Notes under the pieces: model-generated
The model's database searches: none
Seen by the model: only the letters and a program-made list of their open reading frames with translations
Told to the model about the DNA's origin: nothing
Shown: positions 5,101 to 47,335 of the stretch, in pieces
Layout of the letters: each line of letters opens with the position of its first letter
Numbering within the stretch: the stretch's first letter is position 1
Made by a program: the position numbers and the translations under genes
Source of the DNA: Hydrurus foetidus
Taxonomy: Eukaryota
Assembly: GCA_900617105.1 (NCBI GenBank)
Contig: UYFQ01000310.1
Location: 1 to 47,335 of the forward strand
Direction: 5' to 3'
Length of the DNA: 47,335 nucleotides

Positions 5101-5940
5101 CTCTAACTACATCTTGTGCTGTTATGTCACTCTTATCTAATTTCCCCTGACCTATTAATTTAATTAACTGTCCTGGGCTGGCGTAACCTAACTTTCTCTG
5201 ATACTCTCTAGCTAACTCTGCTGACTTAACTTGTCTAGCTGTATACAGTTTCTTCTTATCCTTAACTGTCATGACCATGATCGATTTATCGAACGATACA
5301 TTCTTGTAACTGACATTTCTGTCTAAGTCGCATAGATATATGTTCGTAGACTGATCATGGACAAATCTATATACAGGTCCTAACTTAATCATCCTAACTT
5401 TGTAACAATCCTGGTCACTGTCATAGCTAACTGACTCGCTCGAGCTGACTATGTTACCGAAGGATAATATATTTGCTATACAATTGCTATCGTAGTAAAC
5501 TGTTCCGAAGTCCGTCTCGCCACACTCCGTGATTATCAAGGGTTCCCCTGAGGGTTCACTCCATTAATAATCATCGGGGTAGCGGACGGCATAATACTAT
5601 AAAATAAATCTCCACTACAAAATACTGACTCTGCTGCACATGTATCTAACAACACTTGTCTCTCTGTAAATGTGGAACTGTGTGTATATACATTCGCACT
5701 AAAAATCACAGGGTCACCCCCACAATTTTTACTGTTCAGTGGACAAAAATTCTCCAATCTGCATGCTTTATCTAACAATGGCACAAACGCAGGGTAACCG
5801 GTCGACGTTGCAAATACGTCATGCAGTCCGGTTTCCCCACACGGAACATTTACATCCTTAGCTAGTGAATCAGGTAAAGAAACATATAAGGGACTTACTT
5901 TTCCGAGGAAGGGTGACGCGCAGGTGCGTTCTTCCTCGGG
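2166..5940 (-). CDS. pol: Copia-1 pol (protease, integrase, RT, RNase H); split by single-base frameshifts at ~5540 and ~3705
   Basis: LLDTCAAES (PR); YIDLMF..IRIDGE..VERKIR (IN); KSRLVAGG, LKKALYG, IHVDDM (RT); YIDASYA, SSTEAELVA, YQDN, RTRHIDIK, ADLLTKPL (RH). Confidence 0.93.
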
Positions 5941-7592: not shown

Positions 7593-10500
7593 ATGAAGCA
7601 AGCCGACCTTCTCTGGCTTCTATTCCTCACTGGCGTAGCAGCCATCAAAACAAATGAAGCCGATCTCGGAAAAGAAACGATGCGAACATATCAGCCCACA
7701 GTTGAACACACACCCCTTCCAAGAGTGGAGATCACTTTCACCCCAGTATTTATAGAAAATGATTTACCTACGGCTCTTCCGACTGAAGATCCAACAGCAA
7801 AGCCAACTTACCAGCCAACGCCCTCACCAACATACCAGCCAACAGCCGTGCCAACAGCGAAGCCAACACCTTCACCAACGTACCAGCCAACAGCCGTGCC
7901 AACAGCGAAGCCAACACCTTCACCAACGCACCAGCCAACAGCCATGCCAACAGCGGAGCCAACACCTTCACCAACGTACCAGCCAACAGCCTTGCCAACA
8001 GCGAAGCCAACACCTTCACCAACGTACCAGCCAACACCTTCACCAACATTTGTGCCGTCACCTTCACCATCTTTGGTTCCTTCGGTCCTAGCTTCCCCAA
8101 CTCTTTGTCCTACGGGAGCTCCTTATGCTCATGGACGCACTTATAAACCGACGGAAAGTCAAGAGTGTTTCAAACCGACGAAAAGTCCAGTCAGCAAAAA
8201 GCCAACATACAGTCCAACCAAAAAAAATCCTCCTACCCGTCGACCATCTACCCCAAAACCCTCTAAAGCCCCGAAGACGCCTAAGCCATCAACGGGAATG
8301 CCAATATGTCCGCTCTCACAGCCAACACAGTCACCAAGTGTCGATTCTTCTCCACCATTCCCAAACAAGTTCACACCAAGCCCTTTCTCCGTACAGCCAT
8401 CACCTGAACCAACACCTTCACCAACGCACCAGCCAACAGCCGTGCCAACAGCGGAGCCAACACCTTCACCAACGAACCAGCCAACAGCCGTGCCAACAGC
8501 GAAGCCAACACCTTCACCAACGTACCAACCAACAGCCGTGCCAACAGCGAAGCCAACACCTTCACCAACGCACCAGCCAACAGCCGTGCCAACAGCGGCC
8601 AACAGCCAACACCTTCACCAACGTACCAGCCAACAGCCGTGCCAACAGCGAAGCCAACACCTTCACCAACGCACCAGCCAACAGCCGTGCCAACAGCGGA
8701 GCCAACACCTTCACCAACGTACCAGCCAACAGCCGTGCCAACAGCGGAGCCAACACCTTCACCAACGCACCAGCCAACAGCCGTGCCAACAGCGGAGCCA
8801 ACACCTTCACCAACGTACCAGCCAACAGCCGTGCCAACAGCGAAGCCAACACCTTCACCAACGTACCAGCCAACAGCCGTGCCAACAGCGGGGCCAACAC
8901 CTTCACCAACGTACCAGCCAACAGCCGTGCCAACAGCGGAGCCAACACCTTCACCAACGTACCAGCCAACAGCCGTGCCAACAGCGAAGCCAACACCTTC
9001 ACCAACGCACCAGCCAACAGCCGTGCCAACAGCGGAGCCAACACCTTCACCAACGTACCAGCCAACAGCCGCCAACAGCGGAAGCCAACACCTTCACCAA
9101 CGTACCAGCCAACAGCCGTGCCAACAGCGGGGCCAACACCTTCACCAACGCACCAGCCAACAGCCATGCCAACAGCGGAGCCAACACCTTCACCAACGTA
9201 CCAGCCAACAGCCGTGCCAACAGCGGAGCCAACACCTTCACCAACGCACCAGCCAACAGCCGTGCCAACAGCAGCCAACACCTTCACCAACGTACCAGCC
9301 AACAGCCGTGCCAACAGCGGAGCCAACACCTTCACCAACGTACCAGCCAACAGCCGTGCCAACAGCGGAGCCAACACCTTCACCAACGTACCAGCCAACA
9401 GCCGTGCCAACAGCGGAGCCAACACCTTCACCAACGTACCAGCCAACAGCCGTGCCAACAGCGGAGCCAACACCTTCACCAACGTACCAGCCAACAGCCG
9501 TGCCAACAGCGAAGCCAACACCTTCACCAACGTACCAGCCAACAGCCGTGCCAACAGCAAGCCAACACCTTCACCAACGTACCAGCCAACAGCCGTGCCA
9601 ACAGCGGAGCCAACACCTTCACCAACGTACCAGCCAACAGCCGTGCCAACAGCTAGCCAACAGCGGACCAACACCTTCACCAACGCCAGCCAACAGCCGT
9701 GCCAACAGCGGAGCCAACACCTTCACCAACGCACCAGCCAACAGCCGTGCCAACAGCGGAGCCAACACCTTCACCAACGTACCAGCCAACAGCCGTGCCA
9801 ACAGCGAAGCCAACACCTTCACCAACGTACCAGCCAACAGCCATGCCAACAGCGGAGCCAACACCTTCACCAACGTACCAGCCAACAGCCGTGCCAACAG
9901 CGGAGCCAACACCTTCACCAACGTACCAGCCAACAGCCGTGCCAACAGCGAAGCCAACACCTTCACCAACGTACCAGCCAACAGCCGTGCCAACAGCGGA
10001 GCCAACACCTTCACCAACGTACCAGCCAACAGCCGTGCCAACAGCGAAGCCAACACCTTCACCAACGCACAAGCCAACAGCCGGGCCAACACCAATGCCA
10101 ACAGTGGAGCCAACACCTTCACCAACGTACCAGCCAACAGCCGTGCCAACAGCGAAGCCAACACCTTCACCAACGTACCAGCCAACAGCCGTGCCAACAG
10201 CGAAGCCAACACCTTCACCAACGTACCACCAACAGCCATGCCAGCAGCTGCCAACAGCGGAGCCAACACCTTCACCAACGCACCAGCCAACAGCCGTGCC
10301 AACAGCGGAGCCAACACCTTCACCAACGTACCAGCCAACAGCCGTGCCAACAGCGGAGCCAACACCTTCACCAACGTACCAGCCAACAGCCGTGCCAACA
10401 GCGAAGCCAACACCTTCACCAACGCACCAGCCAACAGCCGTGCCAACAGCGGAGCCAACACCTTCACCAACGTACCAGCCAACAGCCGTGCCAACAGCGG

Positions 10501-13500
10501 AGCCAACACCTTCACCAACGTACCAGCCAACAGCCGTGCCAACAGCGAAGCCAACACCTTCACCAACGTACCAGCCAACAGCCGTGCCAACAGCGGAGCC
10601 AACACCTTCACCAACGTACCAGCCAACAGCCGTGCCAACAGCGGAGCCAACACCTTCACCAACGTACCAGCCAACAGCCGTGCCAACACCTTCACCAACG
10701 TACCAGCCAACAGCCGTGCCAACAGCGGAGCCAACACCTTCACCAACGCACCAGCCAACAGCCGTGCCAACACCTTCACCAACGCACCAGCCAACAGCCG
10801 TGCCAACAGCGGAGCCAACACCTTCACCAACGTACAGCCAACAGCCGTGCCAACAGCGGAGCCAACACCTTCACCAACGCACCAGCCAACAGCCGTGCCA
10901 ACAGCGGCCAACACCTTCACCAACGTACCAGCCAACAGCCGTGCCAACAGCGGGCCAACACCTTCACCAACGTACCAGCCAACAGCCGTGCCAACAGCGG
11001 AGCCAACACCTTCACCAACGTACCAGCCAACAGCCGTGCCAACAGCGGAGCCAACACCTTCACCAACGTACCAGCCAACAGCCGTGCCAACAGCGGACCA
11101 ACGTAGCACCGACACCATCACCAACGTACCAGCCAACAGCCGTGCCAACAGCGAGCCAACACCTTCACCAACGCACCAGCCAACAGCCGTGCCAACAGCG
11201 GAGCCAACACCTTCACCAACGTACCAGCCAACAGCCGTGCCAACAGCGGAGCCAACACCTTCACCAACGTACCAGCCAACAGCCGCACCAACACCTTCAC
11301 CAACGTACCAGCCAACAGCCGTGCCAACACCTTCACCAACGCACCAGCCAACAGCCGTGCCAACAGCGGAGCCAACACCTTCACCAACGTACCAGCCAAC
11401 AGCCGTGCCAACAGCGGAGCCACCTTCACCAACGTACCAGCCAACAGCCGTGCCAACAGCGGCCAACACCTTCACCAACGTACCAGCCAACAGCCGTGCC
11501 AACAGCGGACCAACACCAGCCAACACCCAACACCTTCACCAACGTACCAGCCAACAGCCAGCCAACACCTTCACCAACGTACCAGCCAACAGCCGTGCCA
11601 ACAGCGGAGCCAACACCTTCACCAACGTACCAGCCAACAGCCGTGCCAACAGCGGAGCCAACACCTTCACCAACGTACCAGCCAACAGCCGTGCCAACAG
11701 CGGAGCCAACACCTTCACCAACAGCCGTGCCAACAGCGGAGCCAACACCTTCACCAACAGCGGAGCCAACACCTTCACCAACGACCAGCCAACAGCTGAG
11801 CCAACACCTTCACCAACGTACCAGCCAACAGCCGTGCCAACAGCGGAGCCAACACCTTCACCAACGTACCAGCCAACAGCCGTGCCAACAGCGGTTCACC
11901 AACACCAGCCAACAGCGTAGCCAACACCTTCACCAACGCCCAGCCAACAGCCGTGCCAACACCTTCACCAACGCACCAGCCAACAGCCGTGCCAACAGCG
12001 AGCCAACACCTTCACCAACGTACCAGCCAACAGCTTCACCAACGTACCAGCCAACAGCGGAGCCAACACCTTCACCAACGTACCAGCCAACAGCCGTGCA
12101 ACAGCGGAGCCAACACCTTCACCAACGCACCAGCCAACAGCGTGCCAACAGCTGAGCCAACACCTTCACCAACGCACCAGCCAACAGCCGTGCCAACAGC
12201 GGAGCCAACACCTTCACCAACGCACCAGCCAACAGCCGTGCCAACAGCGGAGCCAACACCTTCACCAACGTACCAGCCAACAGCCGTGCCAACAGCGAAG
12301 CCAACACCTTCACCAACGTACCAGCCAACAGCCGTGCCAACAGCGGAGCCAACACCTTCACCAACGTACCAGCCAACAGCCGTGCCAACAGCGGAGCCAA
12401 CACCTTCACCAACGCACCAGCCAACAGCCGTGCCAACAGCGGAGCCAACACCTTCACCAACGTACCAGCCAACAGCGAGCCAACACCTTCACCAACGCAG
12501 CCAACAGCCTTGCCAACAGCGGAGCCAACAGCGGAGCCAACACCTTCACCAACGCCAACAGCGAAGCCAACACCTTCACCAACGTACCAGCCAACAGCCG
12601 TGCCAACAGCGAAGCCAACACCTTCACCAACGTACCAGCCAACAGCCGTGCCAACAGCGGAGCCAACACCTTCACCAACGTACCAGCCAACAGCGAAGCC
12701 AACACCTTCACCAACGCACTTGCCAACAGCCGTGCCAACAGCTGCCCCAACACCTTCACCAACGCACCAGCCAACAGCCGTGCCAACAGCGGAGCCAACA
12801 CCTTCACCAACGCACCAGCCAACAGCCGTGCCAACAGCGGAGCCAACACCTTCACCAACGTACCAGCCAACAGCGTGCCAACACCGGAGCAACAACTTCA
12901 CCACCACCACCAACAGCCGTGCCAACAGCGGAGCCAACACCTTCACCAACGCACCAGCCAACAGCCGTGCCAACAGCGGAGCCAACACCTTCACCAACGT
13001 ACCAGCCAACAGCCGTGCCAACAGCGAAGCCAACACCTTCACCAACGTACCAGCCAACAGCCGTGCCAACAGCGGAGCCAACACCTTCACCAACGTACCA
13101 GCCAACAGCTGCCAACCAACCAACCTTCACCAACGCACCAGCCAACAGCCGTGCCAACAGCGGAGCCAACACCTTCACCAACGTACCAGCCAACAGCCGT
13201 GCCAACAGCGGAGCCAACACCTTCACCAACGTACCAGCCAACAGCGAAGCCAACACCTTCACCAACGTACCAGCCAACAGCCGTGCCAACAGCGGAGCCA
13301 ACACCTTCACCAACGCACCAGCCAACAGCCGTGCCAACAGCGGAGCCAACACCTTCACCAACGTACCAGCCAACAGCCGTGCCAACAGCGGAGCCAACAC
13401 CTTCACCAACGTACCAGCCAACAGCCGTGCCAACAGCGAAGCCAACACCTTCACCAACGTACAAGCCAACAGCTGCCCCAACACCTTCACCAACGTACCA

Positions 13501-13997
13501 GCCAACAGCCGTGCCAACAGCTGAGCCAACACCTTCACCAACGTACCAGCCAACAGCGAAGCCAACACCTTCACCAACGCACTCGCCAACAGCCGTGCCA
13601 ACAGCGGAGCCAACACCTTCACCAACGCACCAGCCAACAGCGAAGCCAACACCTTCACCAACGTACCAGCCAACAGCCGTGCCAACAGCGAAGCCAACAC
13701 CTTCACCAACGCACTCGCCAACAGCCGTGCCAACAGCGGAGCCAACACCTTCACCAACGCACCAGCCAACAGCGAAGCCAACACCTTCACCAACGTACCA
13801 GCCAACAGCCGTGCCAACAGCGAAGCCAACACCTTCACCAACGTACCAGCCAACAGCTGCCCCAACACCTTCACCAACGTACCAGCCAACAGCCGTGCCA
13901 ACAGCTGAGCCAACACCTTCACCAACGTACCAGCCAACAGCCGTGCCAACAGCGGAGCCAACACCTTCACCAACGCACCAGCCAACAGCGAAGCCAA
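7593..13997 (+). CDS. Secreted mucin-like Pro/Thr-rich cell-surface protein, 3'-truncated by a Gypsy LTR; many frameshifts within the array
   Basis: Signal-peptide-like [17 protein letters not shown]; Lys/Pro/Ser unique segment with Cys residues; long [16 protein letters not shown] repeat that hops between reading frames; the LTR TG begins at 13998. Confidence 0.85.
7791..8048 (+). repeat. First block of the 48-bp coding tandem repeat
   Basis: ccaacaccttcaccaacg(t/c)accagccaacagccgtgccaacagcg(g/a)ag units. Confidence 0.9.
8409..13997 (+). repeat. Main 48-bp tandem array (~5.6 kb, >100 units, with 36-bp deletion variants)
   Basis: Unit encodes PTPSPT(Y/H)QPTA(V/M)PTA(E/K); built from 12-bp ccaac sub-repeats. 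Confidence 0.97.
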
Positions 13998-14270
13998 TGT
14001 AGCCTAGCACGTACGTTCACCGTACACTTTATATACGTTTGTATATATTCACGTATGTATATAATTCACGCACCCATAGTCTATTTTCATCCACATCAAC
14101 TGTCCACCGGTAACGGACGCTCATCAGCATCAGCACCCTTGTAGCCTATCGTTTGTGTCTGTTGTTAGCTGCTTGCTCGCTTCTTTCACAAACTGTAACT
14201 AACCTAACAGTTTACTCCAGCATACCGTCTTTACCCGGATTCTTCGTACTCGAATCCGGCCGCGACTACA
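13998..14270 (+). repeat. Gypsy-1 5' LTR
   Basis: TGTAG...CTACA; homologous to 19908-20181. Confidence 0.95.
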
Positions 14271-14371
14271 ATATTAATATTGAGAGTTGTTAGACGAACT
14301 CTCGTTACTGGAGAGCTAGATAGATTTTCCAACTGCCGACATCCGACGACCATCTGGCACTGATCACCAGT

Positions 14372-17300
14372 ATGGTTTCCAGCAACCGACGAAGACTTTC
14401 CAGGGTATCGGCCGTTTCGACGGCTCCCCTGTCGATTTTCCAGGAAGCGCCATCAACCGACGCCGTCGTCGATATCGTCGCCGACACCATGGACGCTAGC
14501 ACAACGGGAGATTCCGACTCGGCGAATCCTCCCTCGCTTCCAGATCCATCTTTTGCTGCGACTGACGTCGCAGCTCATCTATCTTTCGCCTCTAATCCCT
14601 TCTCGAATTTGGCCCCCGGCGTGGGAGGGGGAAACCCCTTGCAAAATTTTTTGCAGCCATCTTCCGCTCCATCTGGAGCTATTACAGCGGATCTAGCGAT
14701 ATCCCAAGCGGGGGAAGTCTCTGTTGAACATCAACAACTTCCCCAGCGAGTGGATGGAGTATCTTTGGAGCCGGCGCCTTCGCCGTCAGCACCATCGCCA
14801 TCATCATCCACGATGATATCCATCACCGCCGACACCACCGCCATCACCGCCATCGCCGCCACCGACATCACGCCGACACCTGTCATTGTGCGTGATGTTT
14901 TGCCTGCTTTGCCTGTGCTGCCTGTGTTATCTGCCGCAGTTTTGCCTGCAAACCCGGTGCAAACCGATTCCCTGTTGCTCACTTCAGACAGCAATGTCAT
15001 GAACAGAAATGTTCAGAGTGTTGCAACTTTTGCTACCGTTGGTGGTGTTACTAACGATGTTGTTGTTTCAAACCTTGCTGCACGCTATCTATTACCTCAT
15101 GAAAAGGTTAGAAAGCTCAGCAAGGTTCCAACTCATCTGGAAGTTTTAAGCATCACCAACGACCTTCGCAAGAATGGTTGCCCCTATACGTTTCTTGACG
15201 TGGTACCATTAGACGTCGAGCAATCTCTTGTAACACTCCTGCAAAGGCAGTATTGCACTGAGAGAGCAATTCGCGACGAGTGCGAAGAGTGGAAGTCATG
15301 GACTACCGAGAGATTCTGCAAAGAACTCCTCAAGGCAGTACCTGATGAGTCCATCGATACACCTTTGGGTCAGGCATCGTTCCTCGAGCAAGTCTCATCG
15401 TTCAATTTCAGATTTGATTTGAACAACATTGAGACTGACTCCTGTAACGATACTGCCCTTGGTGCATTGGTAGCAAATTTCCCAGCACTACTGCTGAGGA
15501 ACAGCTTAAGGCTGTTAAGATTCTAGAGCGTCAGTTGCCTACCCACCCCGTCAATTGGCAGCTCATCTTACGCCGCAAGGTGAACGGTGAGACTGTTCCA
15601 ATCAACGATTTGAAAGATTTTCGATTCGTTTGGTGGACGCAACTGACTACTCTCAGAAACTCAGCTAACGAGCTTCGGGCTGCTGGTTATGAGGTTACTC
15701 CAGGCCCAGCTACGCGTTCTAAAGATAAGCCTATCTCCAAACGCGCTGCTGAGCCTGATGAGGACACCATCAAACCACGTGCTAAGTCCGCGAAGACTGC
15801 AAAGTCTTCGAATCCCTCAACCACTCGCACCGTACAGGTCTGTGTTGGTTGTGGAAGATCTAATCACACTATCTCTGTGTGTAGATTTACTGCATCACCC
15901 TACTTCAATTCTTCTGACAGTGCATATGCTGATAGCAATGCATTTAAGAAACTGAAAAAGGATTACCCTGATGCATTGGTTGCAAGAGGAGCGTACGTGC
16001 CTACCACCTCCTCTTCTTCCTCTTCTTCTACTGCTACCGCGTCAGCCTCGGCTGTACCGGAGGGTCCGTCTAAGCCGGTCACTAAGCAAAAGAGCTTAAA
16101 GAAGACAAGTAAGTTATCATCAACTATTAGTTTCACTGATGTTGTTATTCCTTCTTCCATATTGGGAGCTCTTACGAACCTTTCGTCAGCTGACTTTCTA
16201 ACTGCTACTGTCACCTATGTGTCACAGCCCAGCCAGCCAAGAAATGAAGTCCAAGTGCTGATCGATACGGGATCGCTCGCCGGCAATTTTGTTGCCATGC
16301 GTGTAATTAAGAATTTTCATTTAGAAGAATTTATTATTTTCGACAAGACACTGACTGTTTGTTCAGCCTTAGATGGAAAATGTTATAACATTTCTAAGTC
16401 TATAAATTTGAAAATGACTTACTTTTCTGAACGTTTAAATAAAAATACTTTTTTAAATTTCAAAGCAATTATTTTAAACAAGTCTTCAGTCGATGTTGTG
16501 ATCGGACGAGTGACAATTCGGGAATCACAAATATTCCTCGAGTTGCCTAGTCAATTAGCATCGACTAATATAGTGCACAGGGCAGCGACCTCAGTAACAC
16601 CCCAAAGGGTTATTGTATCAGGTCTACTAGCTTCTCTCGTCATTCAATCCGAGAATACATCTCAACTGGCTATGCCAGATGATGATGAAATCGGTGAACA
16701 TGAGGCTAGTACCTTTTCACCTTGGTTACCGGATACCAATCCGGAACCGGTTGACCCAGTATCCCTGATTAACATATCGGGTACTCCTGAACTTCAGGAG
16801 TTGATTAGACTACTCTGTATTGAATACAGAGATATCTTTTCAAATACACTTTCATCTCAGCCTGCTTCTATTCCTCCTTTTGATCTGGTTGTTCAGGACC
16901 CTAAGTGGCGTGTCTCTAAAAATAGACAACCACCTAGACCTCAATCAGCAGCCAATCAGAAGGAGATTACTAGACAATTAAATATCCTCATTGAGCAGGG
17001 TATTATTGAGAAATCCACTGCGGCTTATTATAGCCAAGGATTTTTAGTAACTAAGGCTGACGGATCTAAAAGATTCGTTATAGATTACCGTAACTTGAAC
17101 GAATGTACGGAACATGCCTCTTGGCCCGTACCGAACATAACGGAAATGTTACAGAGAATCGGTTCTCAGAAACCGACGATCTTTGGCACGGTGGATTTTG
17201 CTCAAGCATACCATCAAGCCGCATTAACACTCGCTACTAAAAAATATACTTCGTTTATATTATATAGTGGTGTCTATCAGTTTACTAGACTACCTTTTGG

Positions 17301-22168: not shown

Positions 22169-22598
22169 TGTAGCCTTATTGCATTCCTAAGGGGATACAA
22201 TGTGTCTAGGTTAACTAGGTACAATAGGTATATTATACGCCCAGATTCCACTTTTAGGTCTTAGTTCCACATATGATGTAAATGCACTTTAGCGTACACA
22301 TCACTTGTATATACTCAACTGTAAGATACTAACACAAGTCTATTCCACCGACTCTCGCTTCCCTTGCCCGCCGCTTGCACCAACCAGCCACCAACATCAG
22401 CTCCAACGTCCTAGGCCCCGCCCCAGACCACAATATCGATATTCGGTCGATACCGAAGCCTTTTTTCGTGAGAAGTTCGTTTCTCCGCTCCATCAACTTT
22501 AAATCCATCACCTATTTCCGACAGTCGAAGACAATGGCTCTCCGACGCCAAGACAAGAGGATTAGCACCATCAACTCCCTTCGCCGACAACGACAGCC
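22169..22598 (+). mobile_element. Extra Gypsy-2-family LTR (22169-22432) plus leader and first gag codons, truncated by the next LTR
   Basis: TGTAGCC...ACCACA LTR, AATATCGATATT, then MALRRQDKRISTINSLRRQRQP, homologous to the Gypsy-2 gag start. Confidence 0.88.
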
Positions 22599-22983
22599 TG
22601 TAGCCTTATTGCATTCCTAAGGGAATACAATGTGTCTAGGTTAACTAGGTACAATAGGTATATTACGCTCAGATTCCACTTTTAGGTCTTAGTTCCACAT
22701 ATGACGTGAATGCACTTAGCGTACACATCACTTGTATATACTCAACTGTAAGATACTAACACAAGTCTATTCCATCGACTCTCGACTTTGCCTTCGTTTG
22801 CCCACGCCTTCCGTCCTCCGCTTTCCGTCCTCCGCTTTCTCCAACTTCGCCTCCCGTCCTAGGCCCCGCCGTCAGACCACAATATCGATATTCGGTCTTC
22901 ACCGAAGTTTCCTCCGAGAAAGTTTTTCTCTTTTCCGACTTTTTGTCTTCGACTCCTCCAACTTAAACCATCACGTCAAAGTT

Positions 22984-25900
22984 ATGGCTCTACGCCGCCA
23001 AGACAAAAAGACATCCTCCATCAACGCCCTTCGGCGAAAGCAGCAACCTCGTGCTGTAGCCGTCGCGTTCCGACAACGCTATGACGACCATCACAATCGT
23101 AGTGGAGACGCAGAGTCTCCTGGGCCACCTGCGGCTCAGGACCCCGCCGGCGACCTGTCTGCACCGATTCCTCAGCGGAATTCGGAGCCTGCGGTCATGT
23201 CTGTCATTGATATTCCTGTCATTTCGGCGTTATCTGCTTTGTCATTGCAACCAGCTTCGGCTGGACACCAGCTTCGGCTGTGATACCAGCTTCGGCTGCG
23301 ATACCAGATTCAAATGCGACACCAGCTATTGCTGAGAATCCTATTCCAAGGACGATGGCACCACCCCAGCAATATGTGCAGACGGGTGAGAGAGCTCCTA
23401 AGTTGAGCGCCGTGCCCTCTCGTCAGGAAGTACTACGGGTAATGGAGGTCCTCCTTTCAAATGGAACTCCATTTAAACCAGTTGACGTAGTCCATGTTTC
23501 CAACCATCAATCGTTTACAACGCTTCTCAAGCGTAAGTTTGCAACTGATCCCGATCGTCGCGACTCCTGTAACAATTGGAAACATTGGTCGAATCAATTG
23601 TTCTGTAGAGAACTCAATCTCACAGTTCCTACATCAGCTGTCAATCGAACTGACAAGCTGAGTTTCATTGAAACTGTCTCTCAGGTCGCACTTCAATTCG
23701 ACCTGAAGGATAAATCAGTGGAAGACAAGACAGATCAGCTTTTAGCTGATATTGTTGATGGATTCCCTGATGCAACACCCGCTCTCCAACTTCAGGCAAC
23801 CAAAATTCTCATCGATAAGTTGCCTGTCGAACCTATCAATTGGAGAGCAGTGTTACAGCGTAGTCTTAACAATACAACGCCAAGACTCATTACAATCGAA
23901 GACTTTCGATTCGTATGGCTTGCGCAGCTTGCTAAGCTACGAGAATCAATTGATGCCTTACGGTTCATTGATGTCTCTCCTTTGTATGGTGATCACTCTC
24001 GCCAAATCAAAGCTCCTCCTCGTTCCTCTCAGGACAAAATCAAAAAACGTCCACGAGAGAGCGAACAATCAGTGCAATCAGACAAGTCTGACAAATTCGA
24101 AAGACCTCTGTGCACAGGTTGTGGGAGACTTGGCCATTTCGTCGCCACGTGTTTCTACACTACGTCTCCGTACTATAACAGTACAGACGCACCCTATATC
24201 AACTCTGAGGGTCATAAGCAGTTGTTGAAAGTCGATTCAAAGGCTAAGTTTATTCCAACTTTACCTAAGACATCGACCTCTTCTTCATCGTCTTCCTCTT
24301 CTTCTTCCTCTTCGTCAAAACCTGCTACTTCAACAGCAGACTCGACAAACGCTGCGAAGAAACACAAAGGTGAGCAACTATGCAACCTAAATTCATCATC
24401 TATTCTTTCCGATGATCCAGAACTTATTCCTTTCTTCGTATCTCCCCTCTCACAGGAGGTTATGCTGGAAAAAAGTAATAGAGTCTTTACTCTCCTGGAC
24501 ACCGGCTCTTTTGCTGGCAACTTTATACATCGCCGCATTATAACTAATCATAATTTCACACAATTCGTTTCTAACTCTTCAAAGAAATTGTGTAAAGTTT
24601 GTAGTGGATTAGATAATCATTGTTATGATATTTCTGACACTATAGACTTAACTCTTTCTTATTTTTGCCCTGATTTAAATAATTATTATACTTTTCAAAT
24701 CACGGCTTATGTTTTAAACGATTCGAAATTTGATCTAATAGTGGGACGAAAAACAATTCGCGAATTGAATTTATTTTCACGTTTCCCCGATCAAATATCT
24801 GCCAATGCTTCATCAAGCACTACCTCATTAGCGGAAGTTTTATCTTCTGAACAAGTGGATATAACGTGTGGCTGTCAGCCTAAGGAGAAGTTGCAACCCT
24901 CTGATGGCTCCCCAAAGGTCGATCCTTTAACCCAAAAGGTGAAACCGGCAGTAACCCAAACACACGTTATTCTAGCTTCACTAATACAAGAGTCTGAAAG
25001 ACTTTTTGAGGCTGTGCCCCCTGATGAGGACGAAATCGACGACTCGATCAAGGACTCGTTTTCACCTTGGATAGATGAATTTCCTGATACTGACCCACTC
25101 TCGCTAATAAACTTAGCAGGTGATGAAGATCAGAAAAATAAACTTCGGTTACTAGTACACGAATTCAAGGATATATTTAGCAGTGAACTTTCGGCCACTC
25201 CTGCTGATATTCCACCGTTTGACTTTCATGTCAATGACGACCAATGGAGAGTCCTAAAAATAGACAACCTCCATGGGCTAAATCAACAGTTGATCAAGCT
25301 GACATTCTCAGTCAAATTAAAAACTTGAAAAACAAAATATTGTTGAAAAATCAAACGCGGCTTATTATAGCCAAGTTTTACTAGTTCCAAAATCTGATGG
25401 AACTAAGCGCATGTGTATTGATTTTCGGAATCTCAACAATTGTACCGAAGATAAATCACATCCTATTCCACACATCGGTGAGATGTTGCGTAGAATAGGT
25501 GCACATAAAGCAAAAGTGTTTGCTGTACTTGACCTCACTCAAGGTTACCATCAAGCACCACTTACACTTGCTGCACGTGCTTATACTGCATTCATACTTT
25601 TCTGCGGAGTATATCAATTCACTCGTTTACCCTTTGGGCCAAAACAAGCACCCTCCTATTTCCAACAGATTATGACGACTGTTGTGTTAGCAGGGCTGAT
25701 ATACTCTATATGCGAAATGTACATAGATGATTGCAATGTTTTCGGTAAAGACATTGACGAACTCATTTCTAGACTTCGTCTTGTTTTTGAACGCTTTAGA
25801 AAACACAAAATATTCCTTAAACCGAATAAGTGTTATCTAGGCTATGCCGAAATAGATTATGTTGGCAAAGTTCTATCTGCAGATGGACTTAGAATGTCAC

Positions 25901-27890
25901 AAGAAAAAATACGGACTGTCTTAGATTTTCCTAAACCAGTACTATCTAAACAACTCAAAAGTTTTTTAGGATTGGTTAATTATTTTCACGACTTTGTTAG
26001 AAACGCTTCTACTGTTGTATACCCGTTACATCAGTTGCTTCTTAACTATAATAAGTATAAGAAAATAACTTGGACAATAGAAGCTCTCAGAGCATTCAAT
26101 TTGATCAAATCTGAGATTTCAAAATGCACGACTATGCACTTTTAAGTGACACCGATCCGATTTACTTGCACACTGATGCATCGGACTATGGTGTAGGTGC
26201 CTATCTTTTCCAGTTAGTTGACGGTCAAGAAACGCCCATAGCATTTGTCAGTAAATCACTTAACAAAGCTCAGCTTCGTTGGGCTGTTATACAAAAAGAA
26301 GCATATGCTATCTTTTATTCGTGCACGTATTTAAAATCGCTATTACGTGATCGTACGTTCACATTGCGTACAGATCATCGTAACTTGTTATACATCAAGG
26401 ATAATTCAAATCCAATGATTGTTCGGTGGTTTATGGCCTTATCCGAATATTCATTTAAAATTGAATATATACCTGGTGCTAACAATGATATAGCTGATTC
26501 GATGTCTCGACTCTGTCGCAATAACATGGTTGATTTCCCTCAGGAATATACTCCTGATGCAATCATGTCTGCTAATACTATTGAAAAATTCAAACTAACA
26601 CGTGATCAGTACAATACAATCAGTAAAGTACACAATTCACAAGTTGGGCATTTTGGCCTTGAGCGCACTCTAAAGCGTCTCATTGACAAAAAGATAGTAT
26701 GGCAATATATGCGTCAGCATGTCAGGTGGTTCATAGATCACTGTTCGTGTTGTCAGAAAATGAGTATGTTAAAGATACCAATACATGCTCATGGTTTCTC
26801 GACTTCTACTTACACACCTATGGAATGCCTTAACATAGACTTCATAGGACCGTTTCCAGACGGCGGGTACGTACTCGTAATTATCGATACGTTCACAAGA
26901 TGGGTTGAACTGTTTCATACAGAAGATGCTACAGCACTTTCAACAGCTAAATGCCTCTTGCAACACTTCGGTCGTTTCGGCGCACCTCTCCAACTCCGTT
27001 CTGATAATGGGCCACACTTCATTTCCGAAGTTATTAAAGAGTTTCTAACTCTTATTGGCACTCAACATTGTCTTACTTTAGCATACTCTAAAGAAGAAAA
27101 TGCTATTGTTGAGCGCATGAATAAAGAAGTAAATAGACATCTTCGTGCATTAACATTCGATAATGTCACACTAGAAGATTATAAAACGTCACTTCCATTT
27201 GTGCAACGAATTTTAAATTCTAATCACAGTGATCGTTTAAAAATATCATCTTCTCAACTTCTTTTCGGAAATGTACTCAAACTCGATAGAGGTATCTTTT
27301 TACCTCCTGCTGAGCGAAATGTTACTGATGACAAACCTTTGTCAAAGCGTATGAGCAATCTACTCAAAACGCAAGACAGTCTTCTTAAAGCTTCTGCTAA
27401 AGAACTTCTTCGCACAGATTTGCTTCATCAAAGTCAGTCTCAAATTTTTCAGCATGTAGAGTATCCAAAAGACTCTTATGTCTTGGTGCACTATCGCGAT
27501 GGATCTCCTCCTTCACGTCTTCACACGCATTGGAGAGGTCCATTAAAAGTCGTTAGTGGCGAAAATTCGCGTTACACACTTTATGATCTAGTCACTCAGA
27601 AAACATCAGAATTTCATGTTTCTGCAATGAAACCTTTTCTATTTGACCCATCAATCACAAATCCGTTAGATGTTGCACGACGTGATCACATGGAATACTT
27701 TGTTGAAGATATTCTTGATCATCGTGGCAAACATCAACGTACCCACATAGAGTTTTTAGTCAAATGGTTAAATTACCCTTCAGACAAAAACACTTGGGAA
27801 CCTTACTCAAATCTTCGTGATGTTGATAAGCTTCATGATTATTTACGTCACAATAACATGACTAATTTAATCAATAAACAACACCGTTGA
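22984..27890 (+). CDS. gag-pol: Gypsy-2 gag-pol polyprotein with several single-base frameshifts
   Basis: MALRRQDKK start; CTGCGRLGHFVATC knuckle; LLDTGS; YIDD; LHTDASDYGVG; IN core; chromodomain FLVKWLNY..NTWEP; clearly homologous to Gypsy-1. Confidence 0.92.
23251..23327 (+). repeat. 18-bp coding tandem repeat in the Gypsy-2 gag
   Basis: ccagcttcggctg(n)gata x3-4 (PASAVI/PASAAI). Confidence 0.7.
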
Positions 27891-28088
27891 CTTTTATATA
27901 CATATATCCTTGAAACTTTATCCATGAGGATTCTCTCCCATTTTTTTTTACCTTAAGGTCTTTTTTGGAGAGTTAAGTCTGACATAATCGTTTCATGTTT
28001 TCATACACTATATATATATACATGTACTTTTCTTTCATTTTTTTATATCACACATTCGTGTGGATTTTGAAAAAGGAAGAAGGGGTAG

Positions 28089-28340
28089 TGTAGCCTTATT
28101 GCATCCCTATGGATACAATGTGTCTAGGTTTACTAGGTACAATGCGCCCAGATTCGAATTTAGGTCTTAGTTCCCTATATGACGTGAGTGCTCTTAGCGT
28201 ACACATCACCTTCATCTATTTAACTGTAAGATATTAACACAAGTCTTTATCACCTTGACTCCACGTCCGCTTGCCCACGCTTTCCGTCCTTTTCCCTTCC
28301 CAACTTCGCCTTCCGTCCTAGGCCCCGCCGTCAGACCACA
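28089..28340 (+). repeat. Gypsy-2 3' LTR
   Basis: TGTAGCC...ACCACA after the PPT; diverged from 22599-22881, with deletions. Confidence 0.92.
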
Positions 28341-34478: not shown

Positions 34479-37400
34479 ATGAAAGGCAGAGGCAGAGGCC
34501 GAGAGCACAATCCCGCAGGCGGTGGAGCAAACCCTGCCAATAGTGGCAGAGGGAATGCTGGCCGTGGTGCGATGCCTCCACCAAGAACAGGAACGGTAGC
34601 CGCGATCGCCGCATTCCTGGATCTTGGAAGAAAGATGAACCATGGTAGCGTAAGCGCATGGATGAGAAAGTTTCGCGAATACACACGTGCAAACTACAAG
34701 TCCGATATCTGCGAAATATTCGGCAATGAGGGCATACCGGGTACTTACCCGCAATGTATCGCTCCGGTAGACATACCTCTCGATGCTGGGTTTATGGTCG
34801 CTACCAAATGGAAGAGAGCACTAGAGCTCTACGACAAGCTAGTCCTGACACTAAGGGAAGACCGAAAACAAGTTTTCGGTCTCATGCTGGGACAGATTGG
34901 TGAGCAGTCAAAGTCGACAGTAAGAGAAACGAAATCCGGCATTACGGCTATGCTAGAGGAGGACCCGCTATTGCTACTCCGAGCAATCATTCTGACCCAC
35001 CTCTCAGACCCGAGACTAGGTGCGGATCAGAATTTGCTGAGAGTACGCATGGCGTATGAGACCGTGAGAATGGAGCCGAACGACGCGTTGAAATTCTACT
35101 ACCAGCGCTTCAAAGCGCTGAAGACTGGTTACGAGGACACCATGCATACCCTAGGGGTCATGCCGAATACAACGAGGCCATGACCGCCCACAACGAAATA
35201 CGTTGTGGATGAAGTTCATGAACGGGTTGAATTCGGGGTACCGTCATAATATAGAGTACTACGAGCACAGACTCAAAGACTGGCCAGAGGCTCTCGAGGA
35301 CGCGTACCTCGAGATGGCCAAGGTAACACCGAAGAAAGCAGCTGCTGCTGCAACACCACCCAACCAGACCAACATTTTCGCGACGAAAACGGCTGGAGGT
35401 GAGAAACCAGCGGAGAAAGGTAAAGTCAATCGGAACGGGGGCAGAGGGAAGGGTGGGCGTACGTCGTACGGCACCCGTCCCGGGAACTGTAATCGGTGTG
35501 GTGTAGCTGGATACTACTCTTATGAGTGCACGGCCAAGGATAGCCAAGCGGGTGCACAAGCACCGAGTGGAAAGTCGGTAAACCAACCGAGATACATTAT
35601 TCCTCACCTGTACACTCACCCACACCTACACCCGTACATACACCTGCACTTGCATTCCCACACACACTTATACATACACGCACCGATCCTCCATGTTTGG
35701 CTGATTCCACTAGCGGAATTGAAACATGTGATCATATTGTTTTTAGTGCTAATACATGTAATATATATAACACGATTAGAAGTAGACACATACTGCTTGA
35801 TACATGTGCTGGTGAGTCGGTATTCAACGACTCATCCCTGCTGCACAGTGTCGAACACGCACCCACACCCGGGATTGTTAGCGGGGTAAATCCGAATGGA
35901 AAACCGCTGAAATCAAGAAACGTGGGGTGTCGGCGTTCGGCAATGTGTATTATAGCGTTGACTGTGCTGGTAACATATTGTCTTCTGGTATCGCTCTACG
36001 TGACTGTACTGATGTTAAGTACTTACGTGACTATGATTGTTACATAGTGCAAGATGTCAGCGGAAAATATTTTTATATACACTCACGAGATGAAACTATG
36101 AATATATACCACTGCAATCTTGATACTATGGTAACAGAATGCACGCCAATGTTAGTTACGACAGTAGAACAGAACAAGAAATATTCAGTTAGAGAAGTCA
36201 GAGACACGTCGTTAGCTAGAGACTATCAGCGTAGATTAGGATACGCTAGCGCAGCACAGACTATTAAGTTGATATCCCAAGGGAATTTGACTAATAGCAA
36301 AGTGACTGCGCGAGACGTACATAGAGCCATTGATATATGGGGACCGGACGTGGGATCCCTTAAGGGGAAGACCACTAGTCACCAGGCCAAGTTAGAAGAG
36401 AAGTTACCATTGATAGGTATAGAGTACAAGACAGAACAAATCATGTACGTAGATATAATGTTCGTCAACCAGGTACCATATCTAGTATCAGTTGTTCAGC
36501 CTATCGAGTTCCTATACGTTAGCAAGTTAGCTAACAGAGAACACAAGAGCATATGGAACAGTTTAAAGACTTCATTAGCAAGCATGGTAAAGTACAGATT
36601 CAGAGTTAAAATGATCCGAGTAGATGGCGAGGGTGCAATTAACACAGAATGGTTTCATAACAAAGTCGGCTTAAGAGGTATAGTATTAGACGTTACCGGA
36701 GCCGGAGAAGCCGTAGCCGTAGTCGAGCGTAAGATACGACACATAAAGGAGAGAGTCAGATCAGTGATTAATTCTCTGCCATTCTCATTAAACGAGAAAT
36801 TAGAAGTGTGGTTAGTTAAGTATGCAGTCAGTAGAATTGTATTAGCTCCCACACGTAACTCACTTAACGACATCAGTCCGAGAGAAAAATTAACCGGAAG
36901 AAATTTAGACGTAGATAAGGAGATTAAACATGGTTTTGGTGATTATGTCCAAGTGCATAATGATGTCATTAATAAATCTACCAAACCAAGAACAGCCGGG
37001 GCCATAGCACTAATGAGCTCCGGTAACCTAGAAGGTTCATGGTACTATATGCTGTTAGCTAACGAACGTATTGTAAAACGTACTAAAGCGACTGTACTAC
37101 CTATGCCTGATGAAGTGATATTACACTTGAATGTACTAGCTTCAAAAAGAAATCTGCCAATGTTAAACAGCCTGTATTTGAGAATAGTAATCACACTGTA
37201 TTCGATGGTGACGACGATGTTGAAGATGATAGTGCGTACATTGGTGATGTCGAATATGAAACTGTCGATAAAAATGCTAACGCAAACTACACCGATGAGA
37301 TTATTGAAGATAACGATCACAATGACAACGACACATATCTTGAATCACAACTCGACATGTCTGATGAAAATCAATAACCCACATTAGATGAGTACGTAGA

Positions 37401-45900: not shown

Positions 45901-47335
45901 CGATTACCGATCCTCTCAAAGAGGTGTTTGATATTTGGTAGTGGAAAGGAGGCCGGCTCAATGCATTCATTGAGTGCTCGATAATCGATGCAGGTTCGAT
46001 ATGTATCGGCTGTCTTATTAACCATTACAGGATGACTGTAGTATGCAGCGTTCGACCTCTCTATCACACCATCTTCCAACATCTCTTCGATAGAAGTGCG
46101 GAGATAATGTTCCTTTTTAGAGGATTGGGGTCGCACTGGTCTGCGGTTCGATGGAACCTCCCATTTTTGCCTAGGCAATTTGATTTTAAACGGTTTGAGG
46201 TCAGCAGCTTGCGGAGCTAGATTATCGCTGAATATATCAGCGAATTCAGAACAGAGAAAACGAAGATCCTTCTGAAGGCTTTCATCTCCTTCAAAATGAA
46301 TCTCAGACAAGAAATCATCCGGCCCATTAGGCGGTACATTCCGGCACGTCTTGTCACGCAAGAAAGGTGCGAGGGTATCAGTCTTATCATCGTCAATCTC
46401 GTCAACGGAGAGTGCGACACCGCTTGGCCATACGGCTTCCGCGTCATAGTCTGATGTAACAGTGTCCCCAGAGGTATGTGTGGGGATGGGAATCGAGTCA
46501 CCATCTAGGTGCGGGGTATCACCCGTACGTTTCGCGAGTACAGTCGAGACACTGTCCAGTCGCTCACAACCCACATCACCACATGGACTTTGGGTCATGA
46601 CTCCCTCGGTACCATCCTGGGTAACGTTACACGTGAACGTTGTATGACAACCTGACCCTACGACTTCCTTGGTTAGAGGTGCGTGCAGAATGGCCTTCTT
46701 AGGTGTTGGCCTTGGGCATAGACCGTATGGTTCTCTCCGATCCGAAAGTTTTGCCTTTGTGATAGTCTTCAACATATCGTACGTTGGGGTAATCGACTCT
46801 ACTTCCGGTTCTTCGGGTACGAACCCCTCAGATATCATATGGCTGGTATATTTGTGCCAGTGAAGCCGGTCGAGCTTGGCTATTGCTTCGCTTTCTTCAA
46901 ACTCGAGCCAACGAGCATCACGCTTCCTTTTGTTCTCAGCACTAAGCTCGAGAGAAATACCAAAAGCGAAAGGTGTCAATGACATAAAATCATATTTATT
47001 TACAGTTTTGCGACTTAATAAAAGTTCAATATCTGTGTTTCTATTAACCCACATTGTTAAAGGAATGGTATGACACTCGCCGTCATAGGAATGAAATTTA
47101 AGAATTAAATCAATCATTTCTTTATTTATATAGCACTGGCCATCGAAACCAGAGCAAACAGTTCTGCTAAGGTGTGACCCCCTTGTTTGTTTTTGCAAAA
47201 GTATTGCATTATCAACGTGCCAACACTCTCTATCGGAAGAAGGTTTTGCCAATTAAGCCTTTGCTCATTGGTAATCACTGACAGCGTCGCCTGATCAGTC
47301 ATGATTTTAACATGAAGCAAATCGGTTGCTTGACG
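42920..47335 (-). mobile_element. Ty3/Gypsy chromodomain element (Gypsy-3); 5' part lies outside the window
   Basis: 3' LTR 42920-43117 (TGTGG...CCACA); PPT GAAAGAAGGATAAGTGGGGGTAG; pol ORFs. Confidence 0.93.
43537..47252 (-). pseudogene. pol: Gypsy-3 pol (RT, RH, IN, chromodomain), interrupted near 44270-44450
   Basis: RTCIDYRALN, RLPFG, YLDD, LYTDASDYGIGG, HNATVGHNG..CPCC, IDYVGP, KWKGPF, HAKWLNY..NTWEP. Confidence 0.92.

Follow-up and report, generated by a model that had tools for sequence, protein, structure and literature searches.

A putative optional intron at the gag/protease boundary of Gypsy-2, a single-frame Gypsy retrotransposon of Hydrurus foetidus, that likely sets Gag relative to Gag-Pol

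The window, by which we mean the whole stretch of 47,335 nucleotides of Hydrurus foetidus DNA that was analyzed, is eukaryotic DNA and consists chiefly of LTR retrotransposons. One of these, Gypsy-2, carries the signals of a small intron at its gag/protease boundary. The features of this element, together with the homologous predicted intron of a second element, Gypsy-1, are as follows:

22599..22881, plus strand: 5' LTR of Gypsy-2, with TG...CA ends
22984..24369, plus strand: gag, from the ATG to the predicted splice donor, with a frameshift near 23263 in this copy
24111..24152, plus strand: single CX2CX4HX4C zinc knuckle, seen in the translation and kept in the alignment
24367..24375, plus strand: predicted splice donor AAG/GTGAGC, cut before G 24370, inside a Gly codon
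24370..24455, plus strand: predicted retained intron, 86 nt, GT-AG, phase 1, of 3n+2 length
24412..24416, plus strand: ATGAT, a possible but weak branch site 40 nt upstream of the acceptor, a strict YTRAY being absent
24427..24455, plus strand: polypyrimidine tract (24427-24450), then TCACAG acceptor ending at 24455
24456..24481, plus strand: tail GYAGKK in the -1 frame, then the stops TAA (24476-24478) and TAG (24479-24481)
24498..24509, plus strand: protease active-site DTGS, 22 nt past the start of the -1-frame stop
24510..27890, plus strand: remaining pol, with protease, RT, RNase H, integrase and chromodomain
28070-28088, plus strand: polypurine tract
28089-28340, plus strand: 3' LTR of Gypsy-2
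16109-16227, plus strand: homologous predicted intron of Gypsy-1, 119 nt (33 nt longer), with the branch motifs CTGAC/CTAAC

The Gag-PR-RT-RH-IN order, the TG...CA LTRs and the polypurine tract identify Gypsy-2 as a Ty3/Gypsy LTR retrotransposon, and its Gypsy domain order places it outside Ty1/Copia. Pfam matches were obtained, in order, to RVT_1, RT_RNaseH, Integrase_H2C2 and rve, and, as in chromoviruses, a chromodomain was found at the C-terminus of the integrase (PF00385, E 3.5e-13). In Gag, the zinc knuckle is followed by a Ser-rich run and then by a basic patch that reaches the donor. The pol region of this copy is broken by frame changes near 25252, 25318 and 26140, and most aligned contigs of the runs X5 and X6 carry an extra base behind 23263. 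The frame is open from 23211 to 25328, across the gag/protease junction, and full-length relatives of Gypsy-2 each consist of one frame of about 1500-2000 aa. A second Gypsy-2 LTR, with leader and gag start, adjoins the element on its upstream side (22169-22598). No target-site duplication was found at Gypsy-2, as the flanks of its two LTRs differ. A TGG tRNA primer site is absent directly 3' of the 5' LTR, where a short palindrome stands instead (22882-22897 in Gypsy-2, 14272-14283 in Gypsy-1); the palindrome of Gypsy-2 could pair back onto the LTR end, and priming in both Gypsy elements may be tRNA-independent. Elsewhere in the window (7600-14000), a long 12/48-nt repeat array flanked by a Copia LTR and by Gypsy-1 translates as a Pro/Thr-rich repeat protein.

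An earlier note on this DNA had placed in Gypsy-2 a phase-1 donor at 24370, a pyrimidine tract, a TCACAG acceptor and an 86-nt intron, with a spliced product ending in GYAGKK and the TAA at 24476-24478, all of which we confirmed to the base. The acceptor lies at a codon boundary, its CAG being read as Gln in the Gag-Pol frame, and removal of the predicted intron would shift the frame and lead to the stop at 24476, ahead of the protease active site. With its GT donor, pyrimidine tract and YAG acceptor, the segment has the end signals of a U2 spliceosomal intron. The likeness to Gypsy-1 that the note had described was also found: the Gypsy-1 donor A/GTAAGT at 16109 is in phase 1, its acceptor TCACAG ends at 16227, and its -1-frame tail QPAKK is followed by a TGA (16245-16247), which leaves phase 1, TCACAG, the 3n+2 length and the KK-stop common to both elements. 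Scored with a generic donor matrix rather than one trained on the host, the donor ranks first of the 298 GT in the whole of Gypsy-2 and first of 340 in Gypsy-1. RNA folding over the intron gave no common fold signal in 12 elements (z between +1.2 and -3.8, Gypsy-2 -1.6). A third Gypsy element, on the minus strand at 47250-47335, is cut by the window end; it shows an in-frame CAG (Gln) ending at 47291 that follows a hydrophobic strand, with a -1-frame stop seven codons on, and its donor would lie beyond the window.

The protein encoded from the Gypsy-2 donor codon onward was modelled over 140 residues, with a mean pLDDT of 83 and a retropepsin fold. Compared with structures, the modelled protease matched retropepsins, best the Rous sarcoma virus protease (E 6.7e-5), and a sequence search of solved structures returned weak matches only (Ty3 Gag-Pol, E 0.009). 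Residues 1-11 of the model are of low confidence, residues 19-26 form the first beta-strand, which is coded by the pyrimidine tract, and the acceptor Gln (residue 29) lies in the next loop, ahead of the catalytic Asp (residue 44). The retained intron codes for residues 1-29 of the protease region, the first modelled strand included, and since this strand belongs to the protease, the model indicates that the intron would have to be retained to make Pol. The same bases would carry both the splice signal and the protease strand.

The junction was compared in 16 loci of relatives, of which 6 were confirmed among 179 pattern matches in metagenome contigs and 10 among 93 in genome bins; none of the 47 pattern matches in viral contigs was confirmed. 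The Gypsy gag-pol contigs L007-L016 stand in records titled bacterial genome bins, most likely owing to eukaryotic contamination. In a blind scan of 18 elements, the best acceptor and then the best donor upstream of the catalytic Asp were selected, and 215 windows in pol served as controls. A phase-1 donor/phase-0 acceptor pair was returned for 12 of the 18 elements and for 34 of the 215 controls which, with the top-ranked donors of Gypsy-1 and Gypsy-2, agrees with the view of the earlier note that the arrangement is unlikely by chance. The six elements missed were L002, which is broken upstream, and L004, L005, L007, L012 and L015, where the crude scorer picked another site.

For the remaining comparisons L002, broken upstream of DTG, was left out, the acceptor Gln was set by eye and alignment, and the donor was then set by score. 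The resulting 17 elements represent 13 families that are 19-43% identical over the junction region; since these families share ancestry, the counts express retention under divergence and are not independent draws. The donor is in phase 1 in 17/17 elements (112/215 in the controls), and its codon is Gly, Ser or Cys, read as N-GT, in every one. The intron lengths range from 80 to 119 nt and are all 3n+2, and no intron holds an in-frame stop (17/17). CAG is the acceptor codon in 17/17 compared with 222/617 other Gln codons, a comparison that is partly circular because the Gln was chosen by eye. The -1-frame stop precedes the catalytic Asp throughout (17/17), exactly 19 nt before it in 11 elements, and the donor is the top GT of its own open frame in 11/17. 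At 15-45 nt upstream of the acceptor, 14 of the 17 elements have a strict YTRAY, compared with 28 of 103 control CAG codons; Gypsy-2, L003 and L007 lack it. The introns are more U-rich than both flanks in all 12 elements tested for this. The spliced-frame tails comprise 5-42 residues with a K+R content of 29%, compared with 15% elsewhere in the -1 frame, and this basic composition, together with the held stop position, suggests that the tail is a used protein end. Extended to further family members, as the earlier note had proposed, the design recurs in 17 analysable elements of 13 diverged families; phase, 3n+2 length, CAG acceptor, the basic nature of the tail and a stop ahead of the catalytic Asp are conserved, whereas TCACAG as a whole and the KK-stop, found in only 7/17 tails, are not.

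At the protein level, 74 of 120 polyproteins are long enough to show the junction, and these span the RT tree of the clade, a tree built without named reference elements. Of the 74, 65 have a Gln behind the first protease strand (background 23%), and 46 carry a donor-like residue pair, defined by a narrow pattern, 25-40 residues before the Gln (background 6%). The acceptor Gln is missing in 9/74, some of which are strand mis-assignments, and one four-member subclade is truly Gln-less. This subclade (P0275, P0277, P0286, P0297) keeps a donor-like KKCK. The loop after the acceptor Gln takes insertions of up to about 70 residues (L001, L014, L015; P0246, P0252, P0290), which at the loci with DNA are open in both frames and give longer Gly/Arg/Lys-rich Gag tails.

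Intron-less forms were sought in contigs, not reads, of the four runs X3, X5, X6 and X8 aligned to 22900-25400; X3, the sole sure RNA run, leaves the junction uncovered. Seven joints were listed across this interval in the four runs, five of them skips. An X6 contig joins 24367 to 24454 at a depth of 690, skipping 86 nt with GT..AG ends; the joint is seen in one contig of one of the four runs, with 25 letters on its short side and 3 nt of microhomology. This contig lacks exactly the predicted 86 nt; X8 bridges the Gypsy-2 site unspliced, and X5 lists no 86-nt joint. With a minimum microhomology of 3 nt, 4955 deletions of 40-200 nt are possible in the interval, and five skips were listed, so that a chance match to the predicted junction has a probability of roughly 1 in 1000. 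Another skip, 24398-24579 in X5 and X6, has non-canonical ends and was attributed to a diverged relative rather than to splicing. Both X6 and X7 cover the intron of Gypsy-1 and showed no joint there; X4 and X1 hardly reach Gypsy-1 and leave its intron uncovered.

Run X6 is probably DNA, judging by its longest contig of 72.7 kb and by rare variants whose depth nearly equals that in X7 (58/55, 75/72, 502/461). In that case the depth of 690, where rare variants reach 58-200, suggests several genomic copies without the intron, which would be retrotransposed spliced RNA; if X6 is RNA, the joint would be the splice itself. A form of the predicted spliced type was also found among the proteins. P0017 (406 aa, one member) tracks relatives that are 62-81% identical as far as the donor's basic patch and terminates in KLK-ESGASRK, whereas the relatives run on through about 31 residues of the peptide of a 95-nt intron to SLEPPR. 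In the L008 DNA, from the group of P0017, the -1 frame downstream of the acceptor encodes SGASKK and a stop. P0017 appears to be a relative's protein with the predicted spliced tail. P0101 and P0074/P0179 are proteins that stop at the donor codon without the predicted tail, and were not counted as spliced forms.

Taken together, we consider it likely, with good confidence, that an optional spliceosomal intron lies at the gag/protease boundary of this single-frame Gypsy element and sets Gag relative to Gag-Pol. If the intron is kept, one open frame would result in which the 3' half of the intron codes for the start of the protease, yielding Gag-Pol. If it is removed, the frame would shift, and after a short basic tail translation would end ahead of the catalytic Asp, yielding Gag only. 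Judging from BARE1 and EVD, the spliced RNA would be the main Gag message, the unspliced RNA would serve as genome and Pol message, and the splicing share would set the Gag:Pol ratio. Spliced RNA may also sometimes be packaged and copied back into DNA. The conserved splice-controlled switch between Gag and Gag-Pol that the earlier note had put forward is thus supported by the 13 families, the X6 contig and the spliced-type tail of P0017, with the effect on Gag:Pol itself argued by analogy with BARE1/EVD.

A real intron could also act as a brake that limits transposition, the spliced RNA being lost to nonsense-mediated decay or yielding an inhibitory Gag, and particle Gag coming from cleavage of Gag-Pol. 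The stop lies about 3.6 kb before the 3' LTR and would leave a long 3' untranslated stretch; only scattered AATAAA-like words were seen, and EVD is described as needing premature termination to escape quality control (PMC5580714). However, decay does not agree with the K+R enrichment of the -1-frame tail and the held position of its stop, nor with the nearly full-length spliced BARE1 RNA reported on polysomes in the extract of that study (PMC3735527). If X6 is DNA, its copy without the intron would likewise mean that spliced RNA survives to packaging, and we regard such a brake as improbable.

Two further explanations dispense with splicing. The tract and the Gln could reflect constraint on a protease strand and loop, with the GT an accident of a Gly/Ser codon and the X6 contig the product of a microhomology deletion; indeed, the tract falls on the modelled beta-strand (residues 19-26), and the X6 joint, with its 3-nt microhomology, is known from contigs rather than RNA reads. 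Yet protein constraint leaves unexplained the CAG in 17/17, the N-GT used for three different residues, the top-ranked donor and the fixed stop in the other frame, the Gln sits in a loop tolerant of large insertions, and the exact predicted segment was lost twice independently, in the X6 contig and in P0017. That there is no functional intron is accordingly very hard to believe. Equally implausible to us is that a Gag-only protein is made by -1 ribosomal frameshifting into the same stop. A G_GAA_AAA does stand just before the Gypsy-2 stop, and L004-L006 have a similar word, but in 10/17 elements no slippery-like heptamer occurs within 300 nt before the Asp codon, none is found at a common position, and the donor, the branch motif and the intron-less forms would be left unexplained. 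An optional intron remains our preferred reading.

The closest known system is BARE1 of barley, a Ty1/Copia element in which gag ends in a 104-nt alternative intron, with a stop three residues on; its authors call it the sole such small-intron case and name as Gypsy splices those of env, Ogre and CRR, which work differently (PMC3735527). BARE1 shares with the present elements a single gag-pol frame, a short 3n+2 intron after gag, a splice frameshift with a near stop and a U-richer intron. Unlike BARE1, the elements described here are chromodomain Gypsy (PR-RT-RH-IN) in a non-plant host with an intron that codes for the first protease strand. The intron-less form was found here in a probable DNA run, in contrast to spliced BARE1, for which amplification from genomic DNA failed. 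Gag-only splicing has been extended to Arabidopsis Ty1/Copia, Arabidopsis Ty3/Gypsy being described as free of such conserved splicing (PMC5580714). EVADE, the other shGAG RNAs of Arabidopsis Ty1/Copia and Drosophila copia likewise obtain a Gag-only RNA from a single frame by a splice frameshift and stop, but their introns are longer (about 3 kb in copia) and have the protease in their middle, and early termination goes together with the splicing (PMC5580714).

Among Ty3/Gypsy elements, the plant elements Ogre and CRR also use host splicing to set protein output, in the extracts of PMC6317226 and PMC3735527. The Ogre intron, as described there, lies between PROT and RT, contains stops and allows Pol when spliced, whereas splicing here would block Pol; the present intron lies upstream of the protease active site and is stop-free in frame (17/17). 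Tf1/sushi elements and plant chromoviruses share the chromodomain integrase and, in some groups, the single frame, but the strategies named for them in the extract are -1 frameshifting, stop read-through and a single frame, a gag/protease splice being left unnamed (bioRxiv 10.1101/2022.12.06.519325). Extracts of PMC12786077, PMC6317226, PMC9784723, PMC7765848, PMC4427930 and bioRxiv 10.1101/2022.12.06.519325 likewise contain no Gypsy case of a Gag-only splice. Our literature search, in which subscription journals were thinly covered, found this splice in print for Copia-type elements only and for no Gypsy element. Judged by its sequence, Gypsy-2 is of the BARE1/EVD type, with a single frame, a predicted intron after gag, and a frameshift with a near stop. 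It would work like BARE1 while belonging to Gypsy, a known Copia solution in the other LTR superfamily. A Copia element of the window, on the minus strand at 5699-5898, has, close behind gag, a strong donor AAA/GTAAGT at 5898, followed at a distance of 200 nt (3n+2) by a TTTTAG. This pair possibly represents a BARE1/EVD-type intron, and near 35745 a second Copia of the window has an FSAN acceptor-like word of the same kind.

The Gag requirement of retroelements far exceeds that for Pol. As ways to reach this excess, the literature, in the extracts covered, offers frameshifting, read-through and Pol degradation, and gives Gag-only splicing to Copia alone. It is conceivable, although we hold it rather doubtful, that a hidden coding mini-intron is a general route of single-frame chromodomain Gypsy elements to excess capsid, inherited in common or evolved anew among protists and fungi, in which free Gag would gain a basic C-terminal tail without a counterpart in Gag-Pol and spliced RNAs would be copied back as Gag-only elements. 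The clade described here gives a precise and testable splice site. Gene callers would misread such Gypsy elements and miss their main protein product.
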